Shown: in pieces, positions 9,840 through 47,889 of the stretch | Numbering within the stretch: the first letter of the stretch is position 1 | Layout: every line of letters begins with the position of its first letter | From: an uncultured Gammaproteobacteria bacterium | GTDB lineage: Bacteria; Pseudomonadota; Gammaproteobacteria; Steroidobacterales; Steroidobacteraceae | Length of the DNA stretch: 64,000 nucleotides | NCBI GenBank assembly: GCA_963837045.1 | Contig: CAWIMA010000009.1 | Coordinates: forward strand, 1,267-65,266 | Direction: 5' to 3' | The notes under the pieces: generated by a model | The model's database searches: none | The model's input: the letters and a program-made list of their open reading frames with translations, nothing else | Told to the model about the DNA's origin: nothing | Position numbers and translations under genes: made by a program

Positions 9840-10379
9840 ATGCGCAGGCGCCTGTTCAAAAACCTCTTCACCACCCCATGTACCGAGCCCGTGACCGAGG
9901 GGGCAGCGCCGCTGGAGCTCGCGGGCGCGCAGCTTCGAGGCGTGATCGCGCGAAGCCTCGGTCGCAGTCTCGCGATCCGCGAGGTCGATGCGGGTTCCTG
10001 CAACGGCTGCGAGCTTGAAATTCACGCGCTCAGCAATGCCTTTTACGATGTCGAGCGCTTCGGAATCCGCTTCGTGGCCTCCCCGCGCCATGCCGATCTG
10101 CTGCTCGTGACCGGCCCTGTCACGCTCAACATGCGCGAGGCCCTGGAGCGCACCTATGCGGCAACGCCGGCGCCCAAGTGGGTGGTGGCGGTCGGAGACT
10201 GTGGTGCCGGCTGTGGGCTGTTCGCAGACAGCTATGCGTGCGTCGGCGCAGTCTCGAAAGTGATTCCAGTCGACCTCGTGATTCGCGGCTGCCCGCCCAC
10301 CCCTACGGACCTGCTACAGGGATTGCTCGAACTCCTCAACGGCGGCGCCGCGCTCAGCGTGAACACCCAGCACTCCTGA
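9840..10379 (+). CDS. Ehr cluster 1: NuoB/HycG-like small subunit with [4Fe-4S] ligands
   Basis: 179 aa: DAGSCNGCELEI, FVASPRHADLLLVTGPV, VAVGDCG, RGCPP. All four N2-type cluster cysteines are present. Confidence 0.9.
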   Translation: MRRRLFKNLFTTPCTEPVTEGAAPLELAGAQLRGVIARSLGRSLAIREVDAGSCNGCELEIHALSNAFYDVERFGIRFVASPRHADLLLVTGPVTLNMREALERTYAATPAPKWVVAVGDCGAGCGLFADSYACVGAVSKVIPVDLVIRGCPPTPTDLLQGLLELLNGGAALSVNTQHS

Positions 10380-10419
10380 GCGTCTACTGCCCGCTGCGCA
10401 ACCGCGACACGAAGGTTTC

Positions 10420-12204
10420 TCAATATTTTCGTGCCATAGGCGGAATCGTCTGCACATCGGCCGAGAGTGTTGCGAGATGAACCGGTCGATAGTCGAGCCG
10501 CACCGCGCCATGGCCATCCACCCACGCGAGGCTGTGTTTGAGCCAGGCCGCATCGTCACGGTTTGGAAAATCCTCGCGCGCGTGCGCGCCGCGACTCTCC
10601 TTTCGAGCGAGCGCCGAATGCATCGTGGCGATGGCTTGAAGTAGGAGATTTTCGAATTCCAGCGTCTCGATGAGATCGCTGTTCCAGATGAGTGAACGGT
10701 CTTGGACGCGGATATCCGGCAATAACTGCATCGTTCGGAAGAGCCTCGCCGCCCCTTCCGTGAGGGTGGAGGCCGTCCGGAACACGGCGGCATCGGACTG
10801 CATGATCTTCTGCATCTGCAGTCGCAGCTCCGCCGTCGGCCGCGTACCGCTGGCGTGACGCAAGCGATCGAGCCTCGAGATAGCAAGCTCTCCGGCATCT
10901 TTGGACAGCGGCGGCTGCGCCGCACCGGGCCGGATCGAGGCGACACACTGGCGCGCGGCCTCACGGCCGAAGACCACGATGTCAAGGAGCGAGTTGGACC
11001 CCAAGCGATTTGCGCCATGCACGGAGACGCAAGCCGCTTCACCCACTGCCATGAGTCCCGGCACGACCGCATCCGGATTGCCGTCCTTGGGGGCGATGAC
11101 CTCCCCGTGATAGTTGCAGGGGATGCCGCCCATATTGTAGTGCGCGGTGGGCAACACCGGAATCGGTTCGCGCGCGACATCGACTCCGGCAAAAATCCGC
11201 GAGGACTCGGCTATACCGGGCAGGCGCTCACGAATCACCTGCGGCCCGAGATGTTCGAGATGCAGATGCATGTGATCCTTCTGCGGGCCGACACCGCGCC
11301 CCTCGCGAATCTCAATCGTCATCGCACGGCTGACGACATCGCGCGAGGCCAAGTCCTTCGCATTCGGCGCGTAACGTTCCATGAACCGTTCACCGCTTGC
11401 ATTGGTCAGAAACCCGCCCTCGCCGCGCACGCCTTCGGTGATCAGGCATCCGGCGCCGTAGATGCCGGTGGGATGAAACTGTACGAACTCCATGTCCTGC
11501 AACGGCAAGCCTGCACGCAGTACCATGCCGCCACCGTCACCGGTGCATGTGTGCGCCGAGGTGCACGAGAAATAGGTCCGTCCGTAGCCGCCGGTCGCGA
11601 GGATTGTCGTGTGCGCACGGAAGCGGTGGAGCCGGCCTTCGGTCATGTCGAGCGCCACCACGCCGCGGCACGCGCCGTTTTCCATGATGAGATCGATCGC
11701 GAAGTACTCGACAAAGAAGATCGCACGATGTTGGATTGCCTGCTGATACAGGGTGTGCAGCATGGCATGGCCGGTGCGGTCGGCCGCGGCACATGTGCGC
11801 TGCGCCACCCCCTTGCCGAAGTGCGTGGTCATGCCACCGAAGGGACGCTGATAGATGCGTCCATCCTCCGTGCGGGAGAACGGCACGCCGTAGTGTTCGA
11901 GCTCGATGACCGCGCTCGGAGCCTCCTTGCACATGAACTCGATGGCATCCTGATCGCCGAGCCAGTCGGAGCCCTTGATCGTGTCGTAGAAATGAAAGCG
12001 CCAGTCATCCTCCCCCATGTTACCGAGAGCTGCGCTGATCCCGCCCTGTGCCGCGACGGTGTGGCTGCGCGTCGGAAATACTTTGCTGAGACAGGCGGTC
12101 GCGAGGCCTGCTTCCGCAAGCCCAAGCGTGGCGCGCAGGCCCGCTCCCCCCGCCCCTACGACAATTACGTCGTACGTGTGATCGGCTATCGGATAGGCGC
12201 TCAT
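10420..12204 (-). CDS. sdhA: Succinate dehydrogenase flavoprotein subunit
   Basis: 594 aa, full length: [32 protein letters not shown] (covalent-FAD His), ...PPMARKY end. No sdhB follows; the next gene is 40 bp away and convergent. Confidence 0.95.
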
Positions 12205-12625
12205 GCCAAAGCTCCGAACGCTACTTCCAAGACGGCGAACACGGCCGCCGCGGCCACGAGCACATGTACAAAGCCCAGCAGGAGCAGTAAGCCGATCCGC
12301 GCGAGAGGGTCATGCAGGTAGTCTTCCACCACCACGCGAAGCCCCAAATAGGAGTGTTGCGCGACGGCGAGGATGAGCACAACGAGCGGCACCGCATTCC
12401 AGCCACGACTCATCCACTCCCGCACCATCGCGTAATTGATCGATGAGAATCGACAACAAAGACACGACAAACCACACCCCGGGCAATCGCCGTAATCCAA
12501 TAGGCGAGCAGGAGAAAGCCGCCGGATAGGATGATTCCGCTCGCCCGATGCAGGATCGATAGCGTGTTCGTGTACTGCCACCGGTAGTGAAGATACGGTG
12601 ATAGCGGTCTTGAGGGTCCAAGCAT
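12201..12625 (-). pseudogene. sdhC 5' stump joined out of frame to sdhD 3' part (deleted membrane-anchor genes)
   Basis: 12476-12625 encodes MLGPSRPLSPYLHYRWQYTNTLSILHRASGIILSGGFLLLAYWITAIARG (SdhC N-terminus). 12201-12428, in another frame, encodes ..[46 protein letters not shown] (SdhD C-terminus). Together they span about 140 codons, where two genes of about 125 codons each are expected. Confidence 0.65.
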
Positions 12626-12631
12626 GTGACT

Positions 12632-13198
12632 TCACTCCTTAAACAGGCTGCGAGTAGCGAGCCTAAATCGGAATTCCGCTGATCCCGACGAGCGCAGCAC
12701 AAAGAGAGCCGCTTTGCCTTCGATTAAGGGTAGCCCCGCGCGTGGCCCGATGTTTCCGAGTCGCAGAATGGCCGACCCATCGGTCACGATCGCCACCGCC
12801 CGACCGAGGTAGGTGAAATCGAACACCTTCTCCGGGGCCGCACGGATCGCCAGACACACGCGCGCTACCCCCGGGGTATAGATGTCGCGCAGAATCTGCT
12901 GTGTAGAGATCGCAACGCGCGAGCGCATCTCGATTTTGCCGCCGCGGTGATGATCGAAGGCGCGATCCGACCACCCAATGAAGCGCGCCGTCGGCAGCGC
13001 GTTTAACCGATCGACGAGCCCCGCATGCGCCGCGGTGTCGATCTCAACGGTGATCTCCCACAGGGTGCGGTCCTGGTCGCGCCGCACGCTACTCACGTGT
13101 TCGAGAACGAGTCCGGCCTCTGCGATCACATTGAGCACGCTCGCCAGAGCGCCCGGGGAATGCGGCGTCTCGACCTTCAGAATCTCGGGAATCTTCAC
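12632..13198 (-). pseudogene. 3'-truncated ACT-domain malic enzyme gene
   Basis: ACT-like N-terminus followed by the malic-enzyme N-domain: DIYTPGVARVCLAI, VAIVTDGSAILRLGNIGPRAGLPLIEGKAALF. Similarity stops there, the ORF ends about 20 codons later, and the NAD-binding half is missing. Confidence 0.7.
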
Positions 13199-13210: not shown

Positions 13211-13441
13211 TCACGCGCGTCCGCCACGCCGTACCCCGCCCCGGACCGCCGGCTTCGACGCTTGGTCGGGGGGTGTCCAGGGCTGCCCGGTCCGCTCCTC
13301 GATATAGCGGCGAATCAAGCGCCGCACCACCTGGGAGGGGGTGGCGTCCTCTTCCGCACACAAGCGTTCGAACAACGCCTTTTTGCGCGGATCGACGAGG
13401 ATCGTCAGTCGTGCGGTCCGATCTTCGAGTGCCACGGCCAT
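13211..13441 (-). CDS. Ribbon-helix-helix (CopG-like) transcriptional regulator, copy 2
   Basis: 76 aa: RLTILVDPRKKALFERLCAEEDATPSQVVRRLIRRYIE. About four-fifths identical by eye to copy 1 over the 52-aa core. Divergent from Ehr cluster 2. Confidence 0.8.
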   Translation of the reverse strand: MAVALEDRTARLTILVDPRKKALFERLCAEEDATPSQVVRRLIRRYIEERTGQPWTPPDQASKPAVRGGVRRGGRA

Positions 13442-13512: not shown

Positions 13513-15516
13513 ATGCCACTTATCCATTCATCGCTCAGCGCGTGCCTCGTGCTGATCGCTCTCTGGGGCCTCCTCGGCCTCGCCGGACTTCTGCGCCCCA
13601 TGAGCGTGGGTTTTGTGGGGCGGACGCTCTTTCCGCTGGGGGCCCTGTGTGGCGCGGCCCTTGCGATCGTGGCGGCCGTGAGCCTCGCGGCACCTGCCGA
13701 GCAGCTGACGCTTACCGTCGGACTGCCCGACCTGCCGATGCACATGCGGCGCGATGCGCTGACGAGCCTCTTTCTTCTTTTGCTCGGGGCCGCTTCGGCG
13801 GGCATCTCGGTCTTCGCTGCGGGGTACTTTCGACGTGGTCACGGCACCGCGCCCGGCCTGTTATGCCTGCAATACCATGTATTCCTGGCCAGCATGGGTT
13901 TGGTGCTGCTGGCCAATGATGCCTACGCGTTCATGGTGGCGTGGGAAACGATGGCGCTCTCGTCCTACTTTCTGGTCACCACGCAACACGGTCTCGCGGA
14001 GATCCGTCGCGCGGGCTTTCTCTATCTGCTGATCGCGCACGTCGGGGCGATCGCAATCCTGTTGAGCTTCGGCGTGATGCAGGGTGGCAGTTGGCAGTTC
14101 ACCTTCGATGCCATGCGCGGCGCGCACCTTGCGCCACAATGGGCGGCGACCGCCTTCCTGCTCGCACTCTTCGGCTTCGGGGCGAAAGCCGGGCTCGTGC
14201 CCCTGCACGTGTGGCTACCTGAGGCGCACCCGGCCGCCCCCTCGCCCGTTTCGGCGCTCATGAGCGGTGTGATGCTGAAAACCGCCGTCTACGGCGTGCT
14301 GCGCGTGACCTTCGATCTGCTGGGGCATGCCCAATGGTGGTGGGGCCTCGTGCCGCTCGCCTTCGGGCTTTTCAGCGCGCTGTACGGAGTGGTATTCGCC
14401 GCGGCCCAAACCGACATGAAACGACTGCTCGCGTACTCTTCGATCGAGAACATGGGCATCATCTTCACCGGCTTCGGGCTTGCGATCGTATTCCTCGGCG
14501 TCGGCATGCCCTCCCTCGGAGCGCTCGCCCTGATCGCGCTGCTGTATCACAGCCTCAATCACGCGTTCATGAAGAGCTTGCTGTTTCTCGGTACCGGGGC
14601 GGTTTTGCATTCGACCGGTGAACGCAACCTCGGGCGCCTGGGCGGACTGATCCATCGGATGCCGTGGGTCGCGTGGCTGACCCTCATCGGTGCGCTCGCC
14701 ATGGCCGGGCTCCCGCCACTGAACGGTTTCGTCTCCGAGTGGCTCCTTCTACAGTCGTTTCTCTTTTCGAACGAAGTGCCCCGGCCTTTCATCAACATGC
14801 TGCTTCCCTTGGGCGCGGCGCTTATCGCACTCGCCGCCGCGCTCGCCGCCTATGTCATGGTCAAGTTCTTTGGAGTCATCTTCCTGGGCCAGCCGCGCGA
14901 GGAGAGCTTGAACCGCGCGCACGATGCGGGCGTGCTCGAGCGCATCGGCCTTATCTGGCTCGCGCTCGGCTGCTTCGCATTGGGCCTCCTGCCGACGCAT
15001 GTGATCGGCGCGCTGCGCAGCGTGGTCGAGCAATTGAGTGGCGCCGAACTGCCGAGCGCGCACGCTCCCTGGTGGCTCCTCGTACCGTTGCCGGAACGGC
15101 GCGCCTCCTATTCCCCGCTCGTCTTCTTCCTTGCGATCGCCGCAGTCGTCGTGGTCACGATGTTCGCCGTGCGGCTCTTCTATCACCGTCGGGTGCGTCG
15201 CGCGCCGCCGTGGGATTGCGGATTCGGAGGCTTAAATTCGCGGATGCAGGACAGCGCGGAAGGCTTCGGTCAGCCGATTCGCCACATTTTCGGGTCTTTC
15301 TTTGCGATGAAGCGCGAACTGCCCTCCCCGTTTGATCACGCACCGCGCTACCGTGTCACGGCAGGGGACCGGATCTGGCTGGCGCTGTACCTGCCGCTTG
15401 GCACCCTCGTGCGGCGCGTGGCGGATACCGTCGTGTGGTTGCAGCAGGGGCGCATCTCCACCTACCTGCTCTACAGTTTCGTGACCCTCGTTGTGTTGCT
15501 GGCGCTCGTCGTATGA
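13513..15516 (+). CDS. Ehr cluster 2: HyfB/NuoL-like membrane subunit
   Basis: MPLIHSSLSACLVLIAL...; WETMALSSYFLV, GAKAGLVPLHVWLPEAHPAAPSPVSALMSGVMLKTA, RLLAYSSIENMGII. Track ORF 13273..15516 trimmed to ATG 13513. Confidence 0.9.
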   Translation: MPLIHSSLSACLVLIALWGLLGLAGLLRPMSVGFVGRTLFPLGALCGAALAIVAAVSLAAPAEQLTLTVGLPDLPMHMRRDALTSLFLLLLGAASAGISVFAAGYFRRGHGTAPGLLCLQYHVFLASMGLVLLANDAYAFMVAWETMALSSYFLVTTQHGLAEIRRAGFLYLLIAHVGAIAILLSFGVMQGGSWQFTFDAMRGAHLAPQWAATAFLLALFGFGAKAGLVPLHVWLPEAHPAAPSPVSALMSGVMLKTAVYGVLRVTFDLLGHAQWWWGLVPLAFGLFSALYGVVFAAAQTDMKRLLAYSSIENMGIIFTGFGLAIVFLGVGMPSLGALALIALLYHSLNHAFMKSLLFLGTGAVLHSTGERNLGRLGGLIHRMPWVAWLTLIGALAMAGLPPLNGFVSEWLLLQSFLFSNEVPRPFINMLLPLGAALIALAAALAAYVMVKFFGVIFLGQPREESLNRAHDAGVLERIGLIWLALGCFALGLLPTHVIGALRSVVEQLSGAELPSAHAPWWLLVPLPERRASYSPLVFFLAIAAVVVVTMFAVRLFYHRRVRRAPPWDCGFGGLNSRMQDSAEGFGQPIRHIFGSFFAMKRELPSPFDHAPRYRVTAGDRIWLALYLPLGTLVRRVADTVVWLQQGRISTYLLYSFVTLVVLLALVV

Positions 15517-16463
15517 AGCCAATCGAGATTATCACCCAGGTGCTCGAGCTGATCGCGGCGCTCGCCGCGGCGCCACTCTTTCTCGGCTGGATCAACCAGT
15601 GTCGCGCGCAACTGCAAAACCGTCGCCCACCGAGCCTGTGGCTGCCCTACCGAGGCATTCGCAAACTCTTTCATAAGGATGCCGTGATCGCCGAACGCGC
15701 ATCCCCCCTGTTTCGCGTGGCGCCCTACATCGTGTTCAGCGCGATGGTCCTCGCCGCCGCGATCATTCCCTCGATGGGCACGGAGCTGCCATTCACCAAG
15801 GCGGCGGATGCAATCGCGCTCGTGGGGCTGCTCGCCACGGCACGAGTCTTTTTATCGCTCGCAGCGATGGACATCGGCACCGCCTTCGGCACGCTCGGAG
15901 CGCGCCGCGAGATGATGGTGGGATTCCTCGCCGAGCCCGCCCTGCTGATGGTTATCTTCGTCGCCTCCCTCATTTCGGCAACCACCGCGCTGCCCGCCAT
16001 CACCGAGAATCTGGCTACGCAGCATCTGGGGATCTATCCGAGTCTCGCCTTCACGGCGGTCGCCTTCACGATGGTGTTGCTCGCCGAAAATGCGCGCATT
16101 CCCATCGACAATCCGGCGACGCATCTCGAACTCACGATGATTCATGAGGCCATGATGCTCGAGTACTCGGCACGCCACCTTGCGCTCATGGAGTGGGCGG
16201 CCGCTCTCAAGCTCTTCAACTACGCGTGCATCGGGTTTGCGCTCTTTATCCCATGGGGAGTCTCGACCGGCGAGGGCGGTCCTCTCGCACTTCTCGCCTC
16301 GATTCCGCTGCTCGCCCTGAAGCTTGCGGTGGCCGGAGTCGCCCTCGCCCTGATCGAGACGCTCTCGGCGAAGCTGCGGGTGTTTCGTGCACCGGAGTTT
16401 CTCGCCGTTGCGTTCCTATTTGCGGTGCTGGGCCTGCTCGTGCACCTGCTATTGGCAGCTTAG
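15513..16463 (+). CDS. Ehr cluster 2: HyfC/HycD/NuoH-like membrane subunit
   Basis: ENARIPIDNPATHLELTMIHEAMMLEYSARH. ATGA overlap with the upstream gene. Same length class as copy 1. Confidence 0.9.
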   Translation: MKPIEIITQVLELIAALAAAPLFLGWINQCRAQLQNRRPPSLWLPYRGIRKLFHKDAVIAERASPLFRVAPYIVFSAMVLAAAIIPSMGTELPFTKAADAIALVGLLATARVFLSLAAMDIGTAFGTLGARREMMVGFLAEPALLMVIFVASLISATTALPAITENLATQHLGIYPSLAFTAVAFTMVLLAENARIPIDNPATHLELTMIHEAMMLEYSARHLALMEWAAALKLFNYACIGFALFIPWGVSTGEGGPLALLASIPLLALKLAVAGVALALIETLSAKLRVFRAPEFLAVAFLFAVLGLLVHLLLAA

Positions 16464-16468
16464 AAGCG

Positions 16469-17173
16469 ATGGCCGGCGTCCCCTTCGATCTGCAACTGCT
16501 GAACCTCTGTGCGGCGCTGCTCCTGTTGCTTTCCTTTGCGATGCTCGCGCAGCGGCGCATCGTGAACCTGGTGAACCTCCTCGCCGTACAGGGCACGGTG
16601 CTCCTGGTCGCCACACTTCTGCTCGCGTGGCGCACCGGCCAGCATCATCTTTATGTGTCTGCGGCGCTCACCCTCGCGCTCAAGGTGGTACTGCTGCCCT
16701 GGATTTTGCACCGGCTCATTCGCCGCCTGCAGGTCTATTGGGATACCGAGCCGCTGCTCAACATCCCGGGCACCATGCTCGTGGGCGTCCTGGTCGTCGT
16801 GTTCGCCTTTGGCCTGGCGCAGCCGATCTCAGCGCTAGCCAGTACCGCGACGCGCAACTCGATCGGCATCGCGGTCGCTGTGGTGCTGCTGTCATTCGTC
16901 ACAATGATCACGCGGCGCAAGGCGATGTCGCAGGTGGTTGGATTTCTCTCGATGGAGAACGGGCTTTTTTTTGGGGCCATGAGCGCCACCTACGGCATGC
17001 CGATGATCGTCGAGTTCGGGGTGGCGCTCGATGTCCTAGTCGCCGTGCTGGTACTCGGCATTTTCTTCTTCCAGATCCGCGAGCAGTTCGACAGTCTGGA
17101 TCTGCATCATCTCGAGTCGCTCAAAGAGAGCCATTCACTCGAGGAAACTCAGTCCCTCGAGGAGGATGATTAA
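16469..17173 (+). CDS. Ehr cluster 2: HyfE/HycP-like small membrane subunit with acidic tail
   Basis: VVGFLSMENGLFFGAM motif. An extra C-terminal HHLESLKESHSLEETQSLEEDD is absent from copy 1. Confidence 0.8.
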   Translation: MAGVPFDLQLLNLCAALLLLLSFAMLAQRRIVNLVNLLAVQGTVLLVATLLLAWRTGQHHLYVSAALTLALKVVLLPWILHRLIRRLQVYWDTEPLLNIPGTMLVGVLVVVFAFGLAQPISALASTATRNSIGIAVAVVLLSFVTMITRRKAMSQVVGFLSMENGLFFGAMSATYGMPMIVEFGVALDVLVAVLVLGIFFFQIREQFDSLDLHHLESLKESHSLEETQSLEEDD

Positions 17174-18632
17174 CGTGGAGTTCCTGCTCCTGCTCGCAAG
17201 CCCCCTCGCCGGCGCACTCCTCCTGGGCGTCTTCGGCGCGCGGCGCTGGGCGCCTGAGCTCAATGTGGCCATGAGCCTCGCGACATTCCTCGCCGCTTGT
17301 GCGCTCACGGCACGCGTCGTGGGCGAAGGGAATCTCCTTGTAGCACGTGAGCAATTCTTCATCGATCCGTTCAACGTCTTTCTCGTCACACTCACCGCCT
17401 TTGTTGGACTCACGACGTCGTTGTTTTCGCGTCCCTACATGCGCGTGGAGCTCGAGCACGGGCGCGTGAGCGCGCCTCGGCTGCGTCTGTATCACAGCAT
17501 GTTTCAGCTCTTCATGACGACTATGTTAATTGCGCTCACGACCAACAACATGGGACTTCTGTGGGTCGCCATGGAAGCTGCAACGCTTTCCACCGTGCTG
17601 CTCGTCACGCTCTACCGGACGGCGGCGAGTCTCGAGGCCGGCTGGAAATATTTCATCCTCTGCGGCGTCGGTATTGCCCAGGCACTGTTCGGCACGATTC
17701 TGCTGTACTTCGCCGCCGAGAAGATTCTCGGTGCGCAAGGAGTGACTGCGCTCCTGTGGACGCACTTGAATGCGGTGAAGGGGCAGCTCGAGCCCGCCGT
17801 GTTGAGTCTCGCGTGGGTCTTTCTGCTCGTCGGCTACGGCACGAAGGTGGGCCTCGCGCCGCTCCACAACTGGCTCCCCGATGCGCATGCGGAAGGCCCC
17901 ACGCCGATCTCGGCCGTACTCTCGGGGCTGCTGCTCAATGTGGCCATCTACGCGATCGTGCGCTGCAAGGTGCTCGTCGAAGGTTCGCTGCACTCGCAAC
18001 TCCCCTCGCGAATGTTGATGGGTTTCGGTCTGCTCTCGGTCGTGCTCGCGGCGTTTTTTCTGTGGCGTCAGCGCGATGTCAAGCGGCTCTTCGCCTACTC
18101 CTCGATTGAACACATGGGGATCATCACCTTCGCCTTCGGCATGGGGGGGCCGGTCGCCAATTTCGCCGCGCTCCTGCATATGACGGTGCACTCGCTCACC
18201 AAGTCGGCGATCTTCTTTGCCGTCGGGCACGCCGCGCAGAAAGCCGGCTCGCAGCTGATAGAGAACATCCGGGGGCTCATCACCTTGAGCCCGACAATCG
18301 GTTGGGGCCTGATGCTGGGGTCGCTCGCGATCCTCGGTATGCCCCCCTTCGGCGTCTTTGCGAGCGAATTTCTGATCCTCACTACCGCGATGCGAGATCA
18401 GCCCTGGGCGACGCCCATTCTGCTCACCGCGCTCGGCGTCGCCTTCGCCGCCATCTTCGGACGCGTGCAGCCCATGGTATTCGGTGAAACGACGGCTCGG
18501 CGTTTACCGCACCCGCCGTCCCTGGTGCCGGTCTTTGCGCACCTCGCCATCGTGCTGGCGCTCGGCTTGTATATACCGCCCTATCTGGCGGACTGGTATC
18601 GCGCGGCGGCGCGCCTGATCGGGGGCGGCTGA
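17166..18632 (+). CDS. Ehr cluster 2: HyfF/HycQ/NuoN-like membrane subunit
   Basis: 488 aa: GYGTKVGLAPLHNWLPDAHAEGPTPISAVLSG, LFAYSSIEHMGII. Confidence 0.9.
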   Translation: MINVEFLLLLASPLAGALLLGVFGARRWAPELNVAMSLATFLAACALTARVVGEGNLLVAREQFFIDPFNVFLVTLTAFVGLTTSLFSRPYMRVELEHGRVSAPRLRLYHSMFQLFMTTMLIALTTNNMGLLWVAMEAATLSTVLLVTLYRTAASLEAGWKYFILCGVGIAQALFGTILLYFAAEKILGAQGVTALLWTHLNAVKGQLEPAVLSLAWVFLLVGYGTKVGLAPLHNWLPDAHAEGPTPISAVLSGLLLNVAIYAIVRCKVLVEGSLHSQLPSRMLMGFGLLSVVLAAFFLWRQRDVKRLFAYSSIEHMGIITFAFGMGGPVANFAALLHMTVHSLTKSAIFFAVGHAAQKAGSQLIENIRGLITLSPTIGWGLMLGSLAILGMPPFGVFASEFLILTTAMRDQPWATPILLTALGVAFAAIFGRVQPMVFGETTARRLPHPPSLVPVFAHLAIVLALGLYIPPYLADWYRAAARLIGGG

Positions 18633-18633
18633 G

Positions 18634-20172
18634 ATGGCGCTGCGAGCCTGGTTCGCTCGAAGCGGCGCCCAACCGGGCGCCCCGGGTCTGCGCGCACTGA
18701 GCGTCTCACGCGAGGAGTGGCGCCAGGTGGCCGAGGATTCGGCGGCCGCAGGCGGCAGACTCATCGCCCTCTGGGCGAGCGAGGACGAGCGTGCCGCGCC
18801 CATCCTTCGCGCCGTGTTTCTCGCCGAAAAAAGCGGCCTTGTGCTCAGCCTCCCGGTCACCGATCCGCAAGTGCCGTACCCCGGACTCGAAGATCTCTTT
18901 CCGGCCGCAGAGCGCATGCAGCGCGCGCTGGCGGACCTCTCGGGATTGCGTTCTACAGATTCGGATACGCGTCCCTGGCTGCGCCACGCGGCATGGCCCC
19001 CAAGCTATCGGCCGCTGATCGATCCGCAACTGTTGCCGACGGCCGCTATACCGGACCTCGACACCTATGAATTCGTGCGTGTCGAGGGCGAGGGCGTACA
19101 CGAGATCCCCGTCGGTCCCGTGCACGCCGGCATCATCGAGCCGGGGCACTTCCGATTCTCGGTCGTGGGCGAGAAGGTATTAAGGCTCGAGGAGCGCCTG
19201 GGTTACGTGCACAAGGGCATTGAACGGCGATTTACCGAGCTATCTCTACTCGAAGGCCACCGTCTGGCCGCGCGGGTATCCGGGGATTCCGCCGTCGCGT
19301 TCTCCTGGGCCTACTGCCAGGCACTTGAGGGCATCGCGGGTACGCAGATTCCGCCGCGTGCCGCATGGCTGCGGGCACTGTGCCTGGAACTCGAACGGAT
19401 TGCGAACCACCTCGGGGACCTCGGCGCACTTGGCAACGATGCCGGTTTCGCATTCGGTCTGACGCAGTTCTCGCGCCTGAAGGAACACCTCCTGCGGGCC
19501 ACTCACGAAGCGCTCGGGGAGCGCTATCTGATGGGCGCCATCGTGCCCGGCGGGACACGCGCAGATCTCGCCGATTCCGGCGCAAGGCGGCTCGCCGTGT
19601 GTGTGCACGAACTCGCAGACGAAGCATTGACGTTGCGTGCGATCTACGACGAGCACGAGGGCGTGCGCGACCGGTTCACCGGGGCCGGTGTCGTCGCTCC
19701 GGAGCTCGCCGCGCGCTTGGGGCTCACCGGGCTCGCGGGTCGCGCAAGCGCCCAGGCGTTCGATCTGCGCGTCGACCTGCCATGCGAGCCGTACACAGAG
19801 CTTGCGCCGGTGAAAATCGGATTGATGGAGGGAGATGTGGCGGCACGTGTCGCAGTGCGCTTTGATGAGTTGAGCGAATCCTGCCGTCTCATCCGGCATA
19901 TTCTGCACGGGCTCCCGGTTGGGCCACACCGGGCTCCAGTACGCATGCCCGCCGATCGCGCTGTGGGAGCAGGACTGATCGAAGGCTGGCGCGGTCCCGT
20001 GTTCGTTGCGCTCGAAGCGGGAGCGGCAGGCGCAATCCGCCGCTGTCATCCGCACGATCCGTCGTGGCAGAACTGGCCCGTGATTGAGCACGCCATCATC
20101 GACAACATCGTCCCGGATTATCCGCTCATCAATAAGTCCTTCAATCTCTCCTACAGTGGCCATGATCTGTAG
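18634..20172 (+). CDS. Ehr cluster 2: fused NuoC-NuoD / HycE-like 'large subunit' without any NiFe cysteine ligand
   Basis: VGPVHAGIIEPGHFRF, ERLGYVHKGIERRF. RVSGDS at 19273-19290. The C-terminus is PLINKSFNLSYSGHDL, with no Cys at all in this motif. Confidence 0.9.
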   Translation: MALRAWFARSGAQPGAPGLRALSVSREEWRQVAEDSAAAGGRLIALWASEDERAAPILRAVFLAEKSGLVLSLPVTDPQVPYPGLEDLFPAAERMQRALADLSGLRSTDSDTRPWLRHAAWPPSYRPLIDPQLLPTAAIPDLDTYEFVRVEGEGVHEIPVGPVHAGIIEPGHFRFSVVGEKVLRLEERLGYVHKGIERRFTELSLLEGHRLAARVSGDSAVAFSWAYCQALEGIAGTQIPPRAAWLRALCLELERIANHLGDLGALGNDAGFAFGLTQFSRLKEHLLRATHEALGERYLMGAIVPGGTRADLADSGARRLAVCVHELADEALTLRAIYDEHEGVRDRFTGAGVVAPELAARLGLTGLAGRASAQAFDLRVDLPCEPYTELAPVKIGLMEGDVAARVAVRFDELSESCRLIRHILHGLPVGPHRAPVRMPADRAVGAGLIEGWRGPVFVALEAGAAGAIRRCHPHDPSWQNWPVIEHAIIDNIVPDYPLINKSFNLSYSGHDL

Positions 20173-20181: not shown

Positions 20182-20721
20182 ATGATAAAAACACTGCGTC
20201 AAATTGCATCGATCGGCATCGCCACCGAACCAACGCCGCAGGCGGACGAGAGCTTGCGCATTCGCGACGTCCTGCGGGATCGCATTCGTGACGCGCTCGG
20301 TCGGGCGCTCTGCATCCGGCACATCGACGCTGGCTCCTGCAACGGCTGCGAGCTCGAAATACACGCCCTCAACAACCCTCTCTACAACTTGGAAGGGCTT
20401 GGGATTCGGTTCGTCGCCAGCCCCCGTCACGCCGACCTGCTGCTGATCACAGGACCGGTGTCTAAACACATGGAAGTGGCCCTGCGCCGAACCTATGAGG
20501 CGACACCCGACCCCAAGCTCGTGGTCGCGCTTGGTGACTGTGGCTGCACCGGCGGCATTTTCGGCGAGAGCTACGCCAGTTGCGGGCGCGTTTCAAACGT
20601 CATCCCCGTCGATGTCGCGGTCCCTGGTTGCCCGCCGAGCCCAACGCGAATACTGCAGGGCATTCTTGCTGCCATTTCACGCTCTGCCCCAACGACAGTA
20701 GACACCCAAGTTCACTCATGA
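20182..20721 (+). CDS. Ehr cluster 2: NuoB/HycG-like small subunit with [4Fe-4S] ligands
   Basis: DAGSCNGCELEI, FVASPRHADLLLITGPV, ALGDCG, PGCPP. Confidence 0.9.
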   Translation: MIKTLRQIASIGIATEPTPQADESLRIRDVLRDRIRDALGRALCIRHIDAGSCNGCELEIHALNNPLYNLEGLGIRFVASPRHADLLLITGPVSKHMEVALRRTYEATPDPKLVVALGDCGCTGGIFGESYASCGRVSNVIPVDVAVPGCPPSPTRILQGILAAISRSAPTTVDTQVHS

Positions 20722-20757: not shown

Positions 20758-21624
20758 ATGACACAGGGCAAGGGTAAGCTGCGCGAGATTCCGAGTCCTT
20801 TTCCGCTACAGGGCCGGCTATTGCTGCTGGAGCCCGCCGGCAGGCGCGCACCCACGCTGTGCAAGCGCCTCCTGGAGGGCACGTATCAGAAGCCCTTTAT
20901 CCTGGACCACGGAACGCTGCGCTATCTGCACTTCGGCATCGATAGGGTCGAGAGTCTGATGCATCGCGATGATCCTGATGCGCTGTGTCTGTCCTATACC
21001 CGCAAGATGATGAGCTTTCTGCTGTTCAAGCCGCGGCCGCGTCGCATACTCCTCCTTGGACTCGGTGGCGGCTCATTGGCCAAGTTCTGCTATCGGCGCC
21101 TCCCAACTTCAATAATCACCGTTCTTGAAATTGATCCGAATGTGATGGCGTTGCGCGAGGAATTCTGGGTGCCGTCGGACGATGAACGTTTCCGTGTCCT
21201 CCAAGGTGACGGAGTCAAGTACGTCGCGGACCAGGGTGCGCGCAAAGACGTCATCCTCGTCGATGCCTACGACCGCAGTGGTGCGGCGCCCGAACTCGCC
21301 ACTGCGCACTTCTATCACGAAGTTTGGCGGCGCTTGAGCGTGCGCGGGGTGCTCGTCGTCAATGTCTTCGGCAATGCCTACCAGCGGCTCGCGCACGCCG
21401 CGATGATACGCGGCGTATTCGGCGAACGGGTGATGTTGCTGCCTGTTCGCGAATACGAGAATCTCATCGTCCTCGCGTTTCGTACCGATGCCCCGGTACA
21501 CGATTGGGAACGCCTCGAACGCCGGGCAAGCACCCTCAAGGGACGCTTTGGACTCGATTTTCCGTTCTATCTACGCACGATGCTACATTCCTTCGCAGAG
21601 ACTGCGCCGTGCGGTCCGACGTGA
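20758..21624 (+). CDS. Spermidine-synthase-like SAM-fold protein, paralog 1
   Basis: 288 aa: RILLLGLGGGSLAKF (GxGxG), VLEIDPNVMALREEF, DVILVDAYD. 36 nt after the Ehr2 small subunit, with no hairpin in between. Confidence 0.75.
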   Translation: MTQGKGKLREIPSPFPLQGRLLLLEPAGRRAPTLCKRLLEGTYQKPFILDHGTLRYLHFGIDRVESLMHRDDPDALCLSYTRKMMSFLLFKPRPRRILLLGLGGGSLAKFCYRRLPTSIITVLEIDPNVMALREEFWVPSDDERFRVLQGDGVKYVADQGARKDVILVDAYDRSGAAPELATAHFYHEVWRRLSVRGVLVVNVFGNAYQRLAHAAMIRGVFGERVMLLPVREYENLIVLAFRTDAPVHDWERLERRASTLKGRFGLDFPFYLRTMLHSFAETAPCGPT

Positions 21625-22490
21625 AACGTCTGCCCACTGATCGACCGCGACTCTTTGCAATCGAAGGCCCGTTCCCCAAGGAACGCAGCGTGCTGCGTCT
21701 CCTCGAGCCGCCCGGCAGTTGTCCACAGACACTGTGGCAGCGCGTGTTCGATGGCAGTTATGACAAGCCGTTCATTGTTGATAGCGGGTTGTTGCGATTT
21801 TTGCACTTTGACCTGCAATGCGTGCAAAGTGCCATGCATTTGGAGGATCCGGATACACTGAACCTTGCCTACACGCGCAAGATGATGGCGTTCCTGCTCT
21901 TCAATCATGCACCTCGGCGCATCCTGCTGCTCGGCCTCGGCGGCGGCTCACTCGCGAAATTTTGCTACCGGCGTCTGCCATGCACCGCGGTCACCGCGGT
22001 CGAAGTCAATCCCGATGTCATTGCGCTGCGCGAGGAATTTCGGATTCCCCAAGACGATGATCGCTTTCGCGTGATCCGCGCGGACGGCGCAATGTATGTG
22101 GCGCGACTACCACCTTGCAAAGATGTGATCCTCGCGGATGCCTGTGATCGCGAAGGCGTCGCCCCACAGCTCGACGCAATCGAGTTCTACGAGAACGCCC
22201 GTCGTTGCCTCTCGCGTGGAGGTGTGTTCGTCACGAATTTGTGTGGTGATTTGTATGACCACGCGGCACACTTTCTGAAGATTCGCGATGTGTTTGGCGA
22301 TGAGTTCATGACGTTGCGGGTAAAACCGGACGGCAACATCATCGTGCTTGCGTTCAAAGAACGCCGGCCCGAAATCGATTGGGCACAGCTGGAGGCAGCT
22401 GCCGAAGAACTCAAACGCAGATTGGGCCTCGATTTCCCGAGATACGTGCACGACTGGAAGCTGGGTCGGTGGCAGCAGGTACCCAATTGA
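21621..22490 (+). CDS. Spermidine-synthase-like SAM-fold protein, paralog 2
   Basis: GTG 21621 overlaps the upstream stop (GTGA). RILLLGLGGGSLAKF, AVEVNPDVIALREEF, DVILADACD. Colinear with paralog 1 along its whole length. Track ORF 21324..22490 trimmed. Confidence 0.75.
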   Translation: MKRLPTDRPRLFAIEGPFPKERSVLRLLEPPGSCPQTLWQRVFDGSYDKPFIVDSGLLRFLHFDLQCVQSAMHLEDPDTLNLAYTRKMMAFLLFNHAPRRILLLGLGGGSLAKFCYRRLPCTAVTAVEVNPDVIALREEFRIPQDDDRFRVIRADGAMYVARLPPCKDVILADACDREGVAPQLDAIEFYENARRCLSRGGVFVTNLCGDLYDHAAHFLKIRDVFGDEFMTLRVKPDGNIIVLAFKERRPEIDWAQLEAAAEELKRRLGLDFPRYVHDWKLGRWQQVPN

Positions 22491-22744: not shown

Positions 22745-23416
22745 CTAAGCGTGCTGCACGACGTTCCGCGCGCGCCAGCTACAAAAATTATTGTCGAGGC
22801 GCATCGCCGCTGCCAGGCGCTTGAGTCTTTTCAAGTCCAACTCGCCAAGATCAAGATCCAAGGGCGGAGTCGACATGCGACTTCGCGACGAGCCCGACAG
22901 ATACAGCCAGTGCAGCAGCGCCGCCTCCGGTGTCGCGCGCCGATAGTCGACTCCGGTGACTAAGCGATCATTCTCGGCTCCGGCTTCGAGCACGCGCTCT
23001 GGCACACCGCGGAATACGAATGTGCCTCCCTGAGTCTCGAGTCGACCAAGTGACGGCGTCGTGTATCGCGAAGATAGAGGAACGACAGCCGTCACCCAAT
23101 CGGTGTAGTTGTTCCACACGCCGGAATCACCGAGCACCGTCTGCAGGGAGATCACTGCGCCCGGACGCAGCCAAACAGCGGCCTCGCAGAGCTGGGGCGG
23201 TGGCACGATCAACCGATTGAGAAACAACCCTCGCACGACTCGCTGTAGACGGTTGGCGGCCACTGCTTCCTGGATCCAGCGCTCCACGCTGGGCTTAGAG
23301 ATGTCGCGTCGCACATTTTCGGCCACTTGTATGATCGACGCAGTATCGAGCACGCGCAGCGCAGTCGGCTCGGCGAGCACGAGTTCCAGGCGAGTTGACC
23401 ACTGAGGAGTTCTCAC
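22745..23416 (-). CDS. AbiEi-like antitoxin / transcriptional regulator domain protein
   Basis: 223 aa: ..NRLQRVVRGLFLN.. (the 'l.rv.RGlY' block), AVISLQTVLGDSGV, TPEAALLHWLYL. 4-nt overlap with the upstream AbiEii gene. Confidence 0.6.
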   Translation of the reverse strand: MRTPQWSTRLELVLAEPTALRVLDTASIIQVAENVRRDISKPSVERWIQEAVAANRLQRVVRGLFLNRLIVPPPQLCEAAVWLRPGAVISLQTVLGDSGVWNNYTDWVTAVVPLSSRYTTPSLGRLETQGGTFVFRGVPERVLEAGAENDRLVTGVDYRRATPEAALLHWLYLSGSSRSRMSTPPLDLDLGELDLKRLKRLAAAMRLDNNFCSWRARNVVQHA

Positions 23417-24189
23417 GGCGAGCCCGCATCGCGCGCGCTATTTGCCAAACTTCGCTCCAGCGTCTCCAGAAGTCGCAGCTTAATCGCGAGATACTCGTCC
23501 TCGTCAACGTGCGAGTGAATCTCTACCGGCAATGTTGGTAGTACCTCATCTCGGAAAAGTGCCCAGCTCATCAAATCCAGCTTGTCGGCGACACGCTTCA
23601 TCAGCGTCGCCTGACCTCCTAGATTTTCAATGGCTGCAGCGCTCGGGATTGCGCCGCGCGCCAGCAGCAGCTCCAAGTCGTAGATGTCGCGTGGAGCTGT
23701 CCGCCGATCATCGACCAGTGCTGCAAGCTTGTTGTCGGCAAGTGCCTGCTCGTCATAGACGCTCACGTAGACACGCGGCAATGTCCGGTCCGCGATCTGA
23801 ACAGGAATTTTGAGTACATGGCTTGGATCCGGCGTTTGGCGCCGTGATACCTCTACCGCGAGATGCAGATTCTCCCCGGTGCTAGTTCGACCGGAGATCT
23901 TCCAACGAGCGACTGTGTCGGTCTGCTTGGATTCGGAAATCGAGGCGCCGACCAGCCCACTTCCATGAATGGCGCGATCGATCGCCGTCCGTACGGTATG
24001 TTGAAGACTTGCCAAGGAGCGATGTGGATCGTGATCGAAATCTAGATCCTGGGTAAAACGCGCACTCTCGGTAAGAACCCGCATGGCCGCACCACCCTTC
24101 AACACGAGGCTCGAGCTTGTGGAACCGCGATATAGGAATGTCAGCAGCCGCAGCTGAAATGCGTCGCGAGCTTGGGAGAGGGTGGTCAT
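23413..24189 (-). CDS. Nucleotidyltransferase AbiEii/AbiGii-family toxin (DUF1814)
   Basis: From ATG 24189: MTTLSQARDAFQLRLLTFLY..LVLKGGAAMRV...RFTQDLDFD...APRDIYDLELL. Track ORF trimmed by 20 codons. Confidence 0.75.
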   Translation of the reverse strand: MTTLSQARDAFQLRLLTFLYRGSTSSSLVLKGGAAMRVLTESARFTQDLDFDHDPHRSLASLQHTVRTAIDRAIHGSGLVGASISESKQTDTVARWKISGRTSTGENLHLAVEVSRRQTPDPSHVLKIPVQIADRTLPRVYVSVYDEQALADNKLAALVDDRRTAPRDIYDLELLLARGAIPSAAAIENLGGQATLMKRVADKLDLMSWALFRDEVLPTLPVEIHSHVDEDEYLAIKLRLLETLERSLANSARDAGSP

Positions 24190-24201
24190 TGAGGATACAT
24201 T

Positions 24202-24238
24202 AAGGTTATATCCATCATTATATGATGTTTGTAACCTT
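24202..24238. promoter_or_regulatory. Nested palindromes in the AT-rich AbiE promoter region
   Basis: AAGGTTA (24202-08) pairs with TAACCTT (24232-38), enclosing ATCAT-TAT-ATGAT (24214-26), directly upstream of the AbiEii start. AbiE modules are classically autoregulated at inverted repeats. Confidence 0.35.
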
Positions 24239-24526
24239 AATAAAACCATTCTTAGTCATGGACTAAAGCAACACTATAGAAATCGTAACTATCTGTTTTT
24301 ATTAATTTTTCAAATCCTTACCCCAACCATTGATTTCCTAAGAATTTTTCCATCATCAACCGCCTGCAGTTCCAGGAATTTCTCGCTCATGGTTCCAGTA
24401 ACGGTTCCTCTTTCGGCGCGGGAAAATCGCTGAACGATCCGGCTGTTCTTGGACATCGACATAATCACGTTTTGGCCGGACGCTGTTAGCGTCAAAATTA
24501 GTGTTGGGGTTTTCTAGGACGGAACG

Positions 24527-34070: not shown

Positions 34071-34090
34071 GCCTGCGGGAGTCGCAGTTG

Positions 34091-35497: not shown

Positions 35498-35531
35498 GTC
35501 CGAGACCTAGCATCATGAGCAGAGTCATCCC

Positions 35532-42206: not shown

Positions 42207-42311
42207 ATTCGTGTATTTGCAGGCGCGGCAGTGCCAGCTGCAGCAGTACCTGCGCGGCCTTGAGCAGCGCTACGGGGTGCGCGGCTTGGGAGAGATAGAA
42301 GCCCAGGCGAA

Positions 42312-43451: not shown

Positions 43452-43473
43452 CCAACGTACAACTCGGGTAGCC

Positions 43474-44019: not shown

Positions 44020-44062
44020 CGAGTGTGCTCCTCTGGCGCAGATAAAGGTCCAGGGCCGAGCA

Positions 44063-45562: not shown

Positions 45563-45607
45563 ACTCGGTCGCTAAAGAGTCGAAGCCACGGAAGCCCCGC
45601 AAGAGCG

Positions 45608-47887: not shown

Positions 47888-47889
47888 GG

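Follow-up and report, generated by a model that had tools for sequence, protein, structure and literature searches.

The shared ending of the two large subunits encoded in the window (the whole 64,000-nucleotide stretch that was analysed) is, judging from domain content and homologue alignments, the C-terminus of a large subunit, a NuoC::NuoD fusion, that belongs to a complex-I-like Hyq/Ehr membrane complex of six subunits. Hyq and Ehr complexes are Cys-less relatives of the group 4 [NiFe]-hydrogenases, and both copies are ordinary members of this known family. Their common tail is a degenerate, Cys-less L2 motif of a [NiFe]-hydrogenase; both this motif and the cysteine pair of copy 1 are already known for Hyq/Ehr, the pair being the one published for HyqG. 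We hold with good confidence the overall reading of a Hyq/Ehr complex with a degenerate L2 tail; redox-coupled ion translocation with no H2 catalysis is a more tentative part of it.

Translation of the two genes bore out the initial annotation in that both proteins end identically and in register, in D[FY]PL.NKSFN.SYSGHDL followed by a stop codon, with both variable cysteines in copy 1 only. By translation and homologue alignments, the copy 2 tail, DYPLINKSFNLSYSGHDL, occupies positions 20116 to 20172 of the forward strand, and the copy 1 tail, DFPLCNKSFNCSYSGHDL, positions 9757 to 9813 of the same strand. The 18-residue peptides had been assigned to 20122-20172 and 9763-9813, but the true starts lie 6 nt upstream; the shorter spans, of which the copy 2 span begins at Pro, translate to PLINKSFNLSYSGHDL and PLCNKSFNCSYSGHDL, each with its stop. 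The copy 1 cysteines, described as C-x6-C, are in fact C-x5-C, at residues 490 and 496 of the 503-aa protein read from the Met codon at 8302. Their codons start at 9769 and 9787, and they stand at positions -14 and -8 relative to the C-terminus.

Each large-subunit gene belongs to a cluster of six structural genes in the order B-C-E-F-G-I, as on R. johnstonii pRL11, and the two clusters stand in tandem, directly abutting in a close relative (L059). Cluster 1 comprises, on the forward strand, genes for a hyqB/hyfB-like antiporter-like subunit (NuoL-like; 3206-5236, start uncertain between 3143 and 3206; 64% identity to R. johnstonii HyfB), a hyqC-like (NuoH-like) membrane subunit (5233-6186; 69% identity to the R. 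johnstonii homologue, homologues in 63 of 80 loci), a hyqE/hyfE-like membrane subunit (6183-6845; 73% identity to R. johnstonii 'hydrogenase-4 component E'), a hyqF/hyfF-like antiporter-like subunit (NuoM/N-like; 6842-8293; 68% identity to R. johnstonii hydrogenase 4 subunit F), the large subunit (8302-9813; Pfam Complex1_30kDa and Complex1_49kDa) and a NuoB-like small subunit, HyqI (9840-10379; Pfam Oxidored_q6). Cluster 2, also on the forward strand, encodes a hyfB-like antiporter-like subunit (13513-15516; 872 bits with NCBIfam 'hydrogenase 4 subunit B', cutoff 667), a NuoH/HyfC-like subunit (15513-16463; Pfam NADHdh), a HyfE-like subunit with an inferred start (16469-17173; 39% identity to R. 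johnstonii component E, homologues in 69 of 80 loci), a hyfF-like antiporter-like subunit (17166-18632; 864 bits with NCBIfam 'hydrogenase 4 subunit F', cutoff 543), the 512-aa large subunit (18634-20172) and a NuoB-like small subunit (20182-20721). The membrane subunits thus pass the curated HyfB and HyfF models. Pfam matches and alignment identify four [4Fe-4S] ligands in each small subunit, C54, C57, C121 and C151 in cluster 1 and C53, C56, C120 and C150 in cluster 2, which are invariant between the copies.

Upstream of each cluster lies a divergent gene for a ribbon-helix-helix protein on the reverse strand, a putative regulator, at 2777-3016 (Pfam RHH_9 E = 1.9e-22; 73% identity to its cluster 2 counterpart) and 13211-13441 (Pfam RHH_9 E = 7e-23). 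A gene of this type was present in 28 of the 32 loci with sufficient upstream sequence. The upstream similarity of the two clusters is explained by these genes, and an Rfam scan of positions 1-22000 for a leader RNA behind the shared stretch gave 0 matches. Around the 80 loci, the recurrent elements were the six structural genes and the RHH gene, occasionally joined by a spermidine-synthase-like gene; no formate dehydrogenase, hyp or ferredoxin partner gene recurred. Denitrification genes lie near the clusters, and no nif context is visible in the window.

The residues that hold the Ni-Fe centre in group 4 hydrogenases are missing from both the N-terminal and the C-terminal motif. The L1 motif RxCGxCxxxH is absent, with RVSGDS aligned in its place in both copies (8911-8928 in copy 1 and 19273-19290 in copy 2, forward strand). 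The L2 motif CxxCxx[HR] is absent as well; Ser(-7) and Gly(-4) stand where the ligands would be, and both proteins finish with Leu, not Arg. As the initial annotation had proposed, the tail occupies the site of the second hydrogenase ligand pair: the E. coli HycE segment DAPLIIGSLDPCYSC aligns with DYPLINKSFNLSYSG. It is likewise in register with a four-Cys sister clade, mostly Chloroflexota, whose proteins end in ...DFPLINKSFELCY[SA]CxDR, and comparison with these proteins shows that the C-terminal ligands are now Ser and Gly and the N-terminal ones Ser and Ser. The ancestral sites are therefore -7 and -4, in agreement with the earlier view that the copy 1 cysteines at -14 and -8 are not the ancestral NiFe ligands. 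With these residues, canonical binding of a Ni-Fe centre is not possible in either copy.

The four-Cys relatives also correct two further points. The signature had been thought to replace a motif beginning with DP, but the nearest Cys-containing relatives already read ...NKSF[EN]L-C-Y-[SA]-C-x-D-R, and the changes that define the Cys-less state relative to them are solely C to S, C to G and R to L. The expectation that HycI-type processing does not occur holds, because the stop codon falls three residues after the second ligand position and leaves no cleavable extension. However, the missing extension is ancestral and independent of the metal-site loss: each of the 117 four-Cys tails matching the pattern (from 119 sequences) ends at DR with no extension. 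The term 'sister' for these relatives derives from a rough neighbour-joining tree built without HydDB references, in which they stand apart from the Cys-less clades.

Ni-Fe ligand loss goes with loss of the ferredoxin-like relay, and the small subunit retains its [4Fe-4S] ligands. A relay, as a Fer4 gene or a Fer4::NuoB fusion, was present in 4 of 4 four-Cys operons, and a HyfH-like relay subunit was found in none of 77 Cys-less loci, where the gap between the G and I genes spans 3-186 nt. The window contains no NuoI/HyfH/HycF-type 2x[4Fe-4S] subunit, and its G-I gaps are 26 nt in cluster 1 and 9 nt in cluster 2. Neither hyp genes nor a HycI protease were detected among the window ORFs scanned, which included some of the small ones.

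An AlphaFold2 model of the copy 1 large subunit (pTM 0.82) had a confident core, with pLDDT < 50 for residues 105-185 and 483-504, and its top Foldseek match was HycE (7Z0S_E; TM 0.80, probability 1.00). Because the tail itself falls below pLDDT 50, its placement in the active-site cavity rests on homology to HycE and NuoD, not on the model of copy 1. When the C-terminal 68 residues alone were compared with the PDB, HycE was the sole alignment (E = 0.73), with none to the Mbh, MBS or NuoD tails.

The tail is widespread. In homology searches returning at least 8000 candidates each, the signature occurred in hundreds of species and thousands of database proteins. The pattern search that had been proposed, with [FY]PL.NKSFN.SYSGHD, matched 117 of 120 copy-2 homologues, all with Ile or Leu at the variable positions, and 95 of 120 copy-1 homologues, 94 of these with Cys at both. 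Copy-2-type genes were found in at least 576 species-representative genomes. Among 80 copy-2-type loci from such genomes (58-86% identity), 75 had a tail that is identical or departs by no more than two residues; 57 matched the 20-residue consensus exactly, 2 differed at three or more positions and 3 were unreadable. Homologues from Gamma- and Betaproteobacteria with as little as 58% overall identity still have the copy 2 tail unchanged. The signature is thus largely a common feature of a characterised family, Hyq/Ehr, the outcome that the initial annotation had named as refuting its proposal.

Conservation also extends between the paralogues, whose large subunits are approximately 43-44% identical overall. 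When 20-residue segments are ranked by their conservation between the two paralogue clades, the last 20 residues come second, after the VGPVHAGIIEPGHFRF loop; the consensus is identical at 17 of their 20 positions. Strong conservation is seen in the tail and the RVSGDS segment, in the EPGHFRF loop and at each of the four small-subunit [4Fe-4S] ligands.

By its gene order and subunit identities, cluster 1 is the orthologue of hyqBCEFGI of Azorhizobium and Rhizobium, which are alphaproteobacterial diazotrophs. All six of its proteins are approximately 60-73% identical to the products of the R. johnstonii 3841 pRL11 genes. With Rhizobium and Azospirillum proteins copy 1 shares 59-60% identity, compared to 44% with copy 2, and all six cluster 1 subunits behave alike. 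The last 22 residues of copy 1 are identical to those of the R. johnstonii 3841 protein. Copy 1 has cysteines at residues 54, 115, 257, 269, 280, 462, 490 and 496; the triad 257, 490 and 496 corresponds to Cys 259, 491 and 497 of the R. johnstonii protein and is replaced by Gly, Ile and Leu in copy 2. The tail pair is therefore not peculiar to the genome described here: it equals HyqG Cys-491 and Cys-497, described in 2012 by Sprecher (PMC3357923), and is conserved from Alphaproteobacteria to the present gammaproteobacterium.

These comparisons bear on whether the signature is novel to the present genome, with the Cys pair a recent neofunctionalisation after local tandem duplication. The tandem, in L059 abutting, arrangement of the clusters would fit such an origin, but a recent tandem duplication is ruled out by the 43% identity of the copies and by the closer orthologues that each has elsewhere, each copy being closer to orthologues in other taxonomic classes than to its own paralogue. 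Together with the many genomes that share the signature and the earlier publication of the pair (PMC3357923), this makes a genome-specific origin scarcely credible. The divergence of the paralogues proposed in the initial annotation is upheld by the same 43% identity and by the retention of each Cys state within its own clade.

Cluster 2 represents, by its subunit content, a second, Ehr-type lineage that is 43% identical and has Ile and Leu at the tail Cys positions. Homologues of its large subunit with 58-95% identity occur in Steroidobacteraceae, Accumulibacter, Ramlibacter and Burkholderiales, and the cluster 2 lineage was seen in Steroidobacteraceae, Accumulibacter and Burkholderiales. It combines a ligand-less group-4-like large subunit with NuoB-, NuoH-, HyfE- and antiporter-like subunits, as in the definition of Ehr (PMC6349859, PMC12342949, PMC7894505), and the assignment is based on these defining features, not on a reference phylogeny with Geobacter and Nitrospira sequences. 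Ehr (Ech/energy-converting hydrogenase-related) complexes (Coppi 2005; Marreiros 2013) are recorded from Geobacter, Nitrospira and candidate phyla, according to later reports (PMC7894505, PMC12342949, PMC10284858, PMC6349859).

We considered whether Hyq could be a real, non-canonical hydrogenase in which Cys 257, 490 and 496 of copy 1, near the [4Fe-4S] cluster, form a new H2-activating or metal site. The Hyq 'endo-hydrogenase' (hyqRBCEFGI) was described in Azorhizobium caulinodans by Ng in 2009 (PMC2650096) and Sprecher in 2012 (PMC3357923), and genetics in that organism ascribed both the recycling and the evolution of H2 to hyq: a deletion mutant is impaired in diazotrophic growth, and hyq-dependent H2 evolution at < 1 uM O2 was reported (PMC2650096, PMC3357923). 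If direct, these effects would contradict the absence of H2 catalysis in our reading. They could be indirect, however, since hyq is in the nif regulon and nitrogenase evolves H2, and the authors themselves judged a Ni-Fe site in HyqG uncertain or even unlikely (PMC3357923). The relay ferredoxin subunit is absent, no hyp genes were seen among the window ORFs scanned, and the related Ehr is not H2-induced in Nitrospira (PMC10284858, PMC12342949).

The distribution of the cysteines is similarly divided. All three are conserved from Alpha- to Gammaproteobacteria, including Rhizobium and Azospirillum; each is kept in at least 119 of 120, or in 38 of 38, homologues, and each of the two tail cysteines, Cys(-14) and Cys(-8), is found in 119 of the 120 copy-1 homologues. 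Cys(-14) occurs in 33 of 76 Cys-less representatives versus 0 of 17 four-Cys representatives, and in a second clade it is accompanied by Cys(-5). Against this, the Cys(-14) and Cys(-8) pair is missing from the copy 2 lineage and from most of the family, with the rest of the pocket equally conserved. Cys-258 is ancestral, since 8 of 17 four-Cys relatives also have Cys there, and its association with Cys(-14) is weak (odds ratio 4.1, p = 0.007 over 93 representatives, without phylogenetic correction). We rejected this co-variation as an argument for a site, since Cys-258 is also frequent in the four-Cys relatives. Taken together, a non-canonical hydrogenase seems quite unlikely. Very unlikely is the specific proposal that Cys 257, 490 and 496 make up a thiol-based redox or metal site beside the N2-type cluster, a Ni-Fe-free catalytic centre acting on H2 or on a disulfide or persulfide substrate; the Cys(-14) and Cys(-5) combination might then be an independent second version of it. 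If such a site exists, the Hyq cluster with its Cys and the tandem Ehr cluster without them would provide a natural plus/minus pair. We take the three cysteines to be a clade-specific addition to the cavity.

In the Hyq/Ehr complex as we read it, the tail would form part of the wall of what was once the active-site cavity, where the large subunit meets the NuoB-like subunit with its N2-type cluster. What happens there is probably coupled to the NuoH-like and antiporter-like subunits, by analogy with complex I, FHL and Mbh. As to the chemistry, we tentatively suggest that the single [4Fe-4S] cluster could exchange electrons with membrane quinone on one side and with a directly docking soluble low-potential carrier (ferredoxin or flavodoxin) on the other, in an ion-coupled, reversible manner and with no H2 catalysis; this is plausible, if somewhat short of probable, and the lack of a conserved electron-donor gene next to the cluster among 80 loci counts against it, as does the loss of the quinone-binding Tyr of NuoD.

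The same lack of a conserved redox partner gene, together with the loss of all four Ni-Fe ligands and of the 2x[4Fe-4S] relay, would suit a redox-silent, Mrp-like cation/proton transporter whose peripheral arm and tail serve as a structural or regulatory plug left by a hydrogenase ancestor. A Methylocystis cluster, 'group 4f' according to its authors, is induced at pH 5 (log2FC 4.2-4.5), and its catalytic-subunit motif is quoted as ending in AARVS, matching the Cys-less proteins here (10.1101/2025.08.29.672306). Yet the four N2-type Cys ligands are kept in both small subunits and were reported conserved in all HyqI orthologues (PMC3357923), and, although the paralogues are only 43% identical, the tail, the PRG-type Arg and the Glu/His loop EPGHFRF hardly vary between them, which exceeds the needs of a passive plug. 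We regard such a transporter as unlikely.

Hyq/Ehr complexes are very common, and the window holds no new kind of system; it places both lineages side by side. In databases they usually go under the names 'Ni,Fe-hydrogenase III large subunit', 'hydrogenase 4' and 'NADH-quinone oxidoreductase subunit C', and even 'HypE' is used, and a preprint counts the set with the ...AARVS motif among group 4f [NiFe]-hydrogenases (10.1101/2025.08.29.672306). The state of the tail, ...L-S-Y-[SA]-G-x-D-L versus ...L-C-Y-[SA]-C-x-D-R, offers a sequence-level guard against over-calling H2 metabolism in genomes and metagenomes, and whether or not a Fer4 module lies between the G and I genes, or is fused to them, offers a second.

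Among known systems, E. coli HycE (7Z0S chain E) is the best match in both sequence (E = 2.5e-48) and fold; it is likewise a NuoC::NuoD fusion, has the same EPGHFR loop, and the alignment continues to its L2 motif. Unlike the proteins here, HycE has four Cys ligands and DPCYSC, and the deposited chain extends 35 residues past the second Cys, comprising TDR and the 32 residues that HycI cleaves off. FHL further differs in having the Fe-S subunits HycB and HycF. The Chloroflexota four-Cys large subunits ('HyfG', 'formate hydrogenlyase'), probably HydDB group 4f, share the operon backbone B-C-E-F-G...I, the C-terminal context DFPLINKSF[EN]L...Y...D and the same end position with no extension, but retain R[ITV]CG[AV]C, C-Y-[SA]-C-x-D-R and a Fer4 gene or fusion, and have no Cys at -14.

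NuoD (49-kDa) of complex I has the same fold, lacks Ni-Fe ligands and partners a NuoB with cluster N2. Nevertheless, neither copy passes the curated NuoD models (194.5 bits for copy 1 and 164 bits for copy 2 against a cutoff of 360). Alignment to 2FUG_4 places r-m-d-Y-l-h opposite r-v-s-G-d-s, so that the quinone-binding Tyr, T. thermophilus Nqo4 Tyr87, corresponds to Gly and a complex-I-type quinone site is not conserved. The clusters here also stand without NuoA, E, F, G, I and K partners.

The closest relatives are Hyq and Ehr themselves. Hyq has the order B-C-E-F-G-I, a HyqG that is an approximately 504-aa NuoC::NuoD fusion without both CxxC motifs, and a HyqI with four Cys for an N2-type cluster, as found in both small subunits here. 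It differs in its setting: the present host is a Steroidobacteraceae-like gammaproteobacterium with denitrification genes nearby and no visible nif context, and the upstream gene is a divergent RHH_9 gene, compared to a co-directional HTH gene in Rhizobium, for which the R. johnstonii version has no match within the window. Copy 2, without the Cys triad, is not a Hyq orthologue. Its counterpart is Ehr, which is reported to lack the CxxC motifs and to branch beside group 4f (PMC10284858, PMC12342949); it shares a group-4-like architecture of NuoL-like, HyfE-like, large and small subunits, with a large subunit free of Ni-Fe ligands; a Nitrospirota member (Thermodesulfovibrio) carries ...DFPLCNKSFNQSYSGHDL.

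Copy 1 and copy 2, the large subunits of clusters 1 and 2, are encoded on the forward strand at 8302-9813 (503 aa) and 18634-20172 (512 aa), each in fifth place in a cluster of six genes ordered HyfB-like antiporter-like, NuoH-like, HyfE-like, HyfF-like antiporter-like, large subunit and small subunit. In both clusters, the large subunit is a NuoC::NuoD fusion and the small subunit a NuoB-like protein of 179 aa, with 43% identity between the large and 56% between the small subunits. The membrane subunits passed the NCBI curated models 'hydrogenase 4 subunit B' and 'subunit F', and the large subunits scored only far under the cutoffs of NuoD models. Each small subunit has retained, as CxxC...C...CPP, the cysteines that bind an N2-type [4Fe-4S] cluster. 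The nearest solved structure was E. coli HycE (7Z0S_E), both by sequence (E = 2.5e-48) and by fold (TM 0.80 to an AlphaFold2 model of copy 1, pTM 0.82). Translation of 9763-9813 gives PLCNKSFNCSYSGHDL-stop (copy 1), and 20122-20172 gives PLINKSFNLSYSGHDL-stop (copy 2). Both endings described in the initial annotation are thus real, but its 18-residue peptides begin two codons earlier, at 9757 and 20116, and five residues, not the six implied by C-x6-C, separate the two cysteines of copy 1. Its observation is correct, and most of its structural reading is sound.

The tail is a degenerate form of L2, the C-terminal Ni-Fe ligand motif of group-4 [NiFe]-hydrogenases. As had been proposed, it occupies the L2 place: HMMER aligned DAPLIIGSLDPCYSC of the tail in register with DYPLINKSFNLSYSG of the HycE L2 motif, while at L1, the N-terminal ligand motif, RVCGIC of HycE lies opposite RVSGDS in the window copies. 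When 1.84 billion cluster representatives were searched, 6424 relatives emerged at E <= 1e-3; among the best 150, which were inspected, were proteins with all four ligand cysteines and the same tail context (e.g., ...VPDFPLINKSFELCYSCLDR with RICGVC). Using one such four-Cys sequence as the query recovered 119 proteins, mostly from Chloroflexota, of which 117 end FP[LV]INKSF[EN]LCY[SA]CxDR, with nothing beyond the Arg. Because the four-Cys relatives share the tail context, the DFPL.NKSF[EN]L...Y...D block descends from a lineage of real hydrogenases. The state of the Cys-less proteins is set by just three changes, numbered back from the C-terminus: Ser for Cys(-7), Gly for Cys(-4) and Leu for Arg(-1). 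The lack of a protease-cleaved tail, noted in the initial annotation, is ancestral to the lineage and not a result of metal-site loss, since these four-Cys relatives have no such tail either; HycE (7Z0S chain), unlike them, runs 35 residues past its second Cys. The Cys-less proteins P0240, P0245, P0248, P0251, P0350 and P0372, one of them inside the Hyq clade, keep the first L1 Cys (R.CGDS) and may be intermediates or reversions in Ni-Fe site loss.

Both 'ehr' and 'hyq' have been listed as group-4 subtypes without Ni-Fe ligands (Degli Esposti, PMC4758237), and the tail is characteristic of Hyq/Ehr large subunits as a family. The proposed pattern search recovered 117/120 copy-2 relatives (I/L) and 95/120 copy-1 relatives (94 with C/C); it matched 0 of 118 four-Cys relatives. 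Of the 120 database relatives nearest to copy 2, 115 share its tail VPDFPLINKSFNLSYSGHDL unchanged. Among 80 loci from species-representative genomes, including Steroidobacteraceae, Accumulibacter, Ramlibacter, Caldimonas and other Burkholderiales, 75 have the same tail or at most two substitutions, at 58-86% overall identity. When the paralogue clades are compared in 20-residue windows, conservation of the tail (17/20) is exceeded only by that of H.I.VGPVHAGIIEPGHFRF.

Of 120 copy-1 relatives, 119 have Cys(-14) and 119 have Cys(-8). We aligned 93 representatives (76 Cys-less, 17 four-Cys) and counted residues at the cysteine positions. Cys(-14) occurred in 33/76 Cys-less proteins from several clades and in 0/17 four-Cys proteins, and Cys(-8) only in the Hyq clade. 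In a separate clade including Hydrogenedentota, Cys(-14) is accompanied by Cys(-5) (NLSYCG), which may reflect a second, independent acquisition of Cys; the Cys-less P0345, P0357, P0376, P0378, P0387 and P0406 (Hydrogenedentota and others) end ...DFPLCNKSFNLSYCG.DL, with Cys at -5, not -8. Cys-258, the family position of copy 1 Cys 257, is Cys in 8/17 four-Cys relatives, lies opposite a Cys in HycE and is probably ancestral; across the 93 representatives it was weakly associated with Cys(-14). Further Hyq-clade-specific cysteines lie at positions 55, 270 and 281. The AlphaFold model of copy 1 has pLDDT < 50 over residues 483-504, which include the tail, and is uninformative there. The distribution of the tail cysteines does not demonstrate that the two act as a pair.

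Downstream of the large subunit, each of the four four-Cys sister operons inspected (Chloroflexota) encodes a 2x[4Fe-4S] ferredoxin-like module, as a separate gene in L083 (11623-11988) or fused to the NuoB-like subunit (292-317 aa) in L085 (8617-9504), L086 (8622-9575) and L087 (8509-9387). The gap between large- and small-subunit genes is 26 nt and 9 nt in the window and 3-186 nt in 77 Cys-less loci, and no HyfH-like sequence was found in the window clusters or those 77 loci. Cys-less complexes retain one Fe-S cluster and the tail, together with the PRG-type Arg and an intact Glu/His loop; lost are the Ni-Fe ligands as well as the electron wire supplying hydrogenases. A Fer4-type module after the large subunit is a simple diagnostic of real versus degenerate group-4 hydrogenases.

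Each cluster has a divergent RHH_9 ribbon-helix-helix gene on the reverse strand (2777-3016 and 13211-13441), whose products are 73% identical, far above the structural genes (43-56%). A divergent RHH gene was present in 28/32 copy-2-type loci with enough upstream sequence and is probably a dedicated regulator. No other recurring neighbour was found around 80 loci. Between the clusters, a 2.8-kb reverse-strand segment (10382-13198) holds sdhA in full, an sdhD-like gene and an ACT-malic-enzyme gene that is truncated, with no adjoining sdhB or sdhC; its GC content is in line with the flanks, no junction repeats were seen, and it is missing from an 87.5%-identical relative (L059), whose two clusters abut. 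Directly downstream of cluster 2 are two tandem spermidine-synthase-like paralogues (Spermine_synth domain; 20758-21624 and 21624-22490); similar genes were found in 7-8 of 80 related loci, mostly just 3' of the cluster. On the reverse strand, an AbiEii-family nucleotidyltransferase toxin gene (23413-24249) and an overlapping, immediately downstream 223-aa ORF with no Pfam match (22745-23416) probably form a pair of the type IV toxin-antitoxin or abortive-infection kind. A denitrification/respiration block at 32856-48954 encodes NnrS (32856-34070), an MFS transporter (33989-35497), narG (35532-39278), narH (39275-40819), a SLAC1-type anion channel (42312-43451), a cytochrome c (47174-47887) and a nirK-like multicopper oxidase (47890-48954); the host appears to respire nitrate facultatively.

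These data establish what the motif is and show that the pocket and the ligands of the N2-type cluster are under purifying selection; canonical Ni-Fe ligation is impossible. By homology to HycE, Mbh and complex I, the tail would line a cavity between the large and small subunits, where events would be coupled to the NuoH-like and antiporter-like subunits. The chemistry we prefer is speculative and judged less likely than not: the single cluster might pass electrons, in either direction, between quinone and a low-potential carrier that docks directly, with ion translocation coupled to this exchange. Such chemistry could explain the nif-linked Azorhizobium phenotype without H2 catalysis; against it, Gly replaces the quinone-binding Tyr of NuoD, and no conserved partner gene was found beside the cluster in 80 loci. 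Published functional data are few and indirect. Hyq-dependent H2 phenotypes are reported in A. caulinodans (PMC2650096, PMC3357923). Ehr subunits are more abundant in formate-grown Geobacter, and H2 gives no induction of Ehr in Nitrospira (PMC10284858, PMC12342949). A Methylocystis set with a motif ending AARVS, like the Cys-less proteins, was classed as group 4f [NiFe]-hydrogenases, and induction at pH 5 was 16-23-fold in the Methylocystis whose 'group 4f' subunit has this Cys-less motif (preprint 10.1101/2025.08.29.672306). Public annotations of the family also include 'Ni,Fe-hydrogenase III large subunit', 'NADH-quinone oxidoreductase subunit C', 'nickel-dependent hydrogenase large subunit' and 'hydrogenase expression protein HypE'. 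The lasting interest lies in the family's chemistry and in both lineages standing side by side in one genome.

A. caulinodans HyqG is a 504-residue NuoC::NuoD fusion (Sprecher et al. 2012, PMC3357923), and copy 1 has Cys 257, 490 and 496 in 503 residues. Its tail cysteines, which the initial annotation took as a paralog-specific feature, are the already published HyqG Cys-491/Cys-497 (PMC3357923). Plasmid sequences searched by tblastn gave full-length matches (57-62% identical) in Rhizobium, Sinorhizobium, Azospirillum and Bradyrhizobium. On pRL11 of R. johnstonii 3841, the genes are annotated in order as hyfB, NuoH, hydrogenase-4 component E, hydrogenase 4 subunit F, 'NADH-quinone oxidoreductase subunit C' and NuoB-family. 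Across the six subunits, identity to the Rhizobium proteins is 60-73% for cluster 1 versus 39-66% for cluster 2; cluster 1 is nearer in all six and is therefore a hyq orthologue, and cluster 2 is a separate Ehr-type lineage. The Rhizobium cluster has an HTH gene upstream, unlike the RHH_9 genes of the window. The large subunit of R. johnstonii 3841 carries Cys 259, 491 and 497 and ends in the same 22 residues as copy 1.
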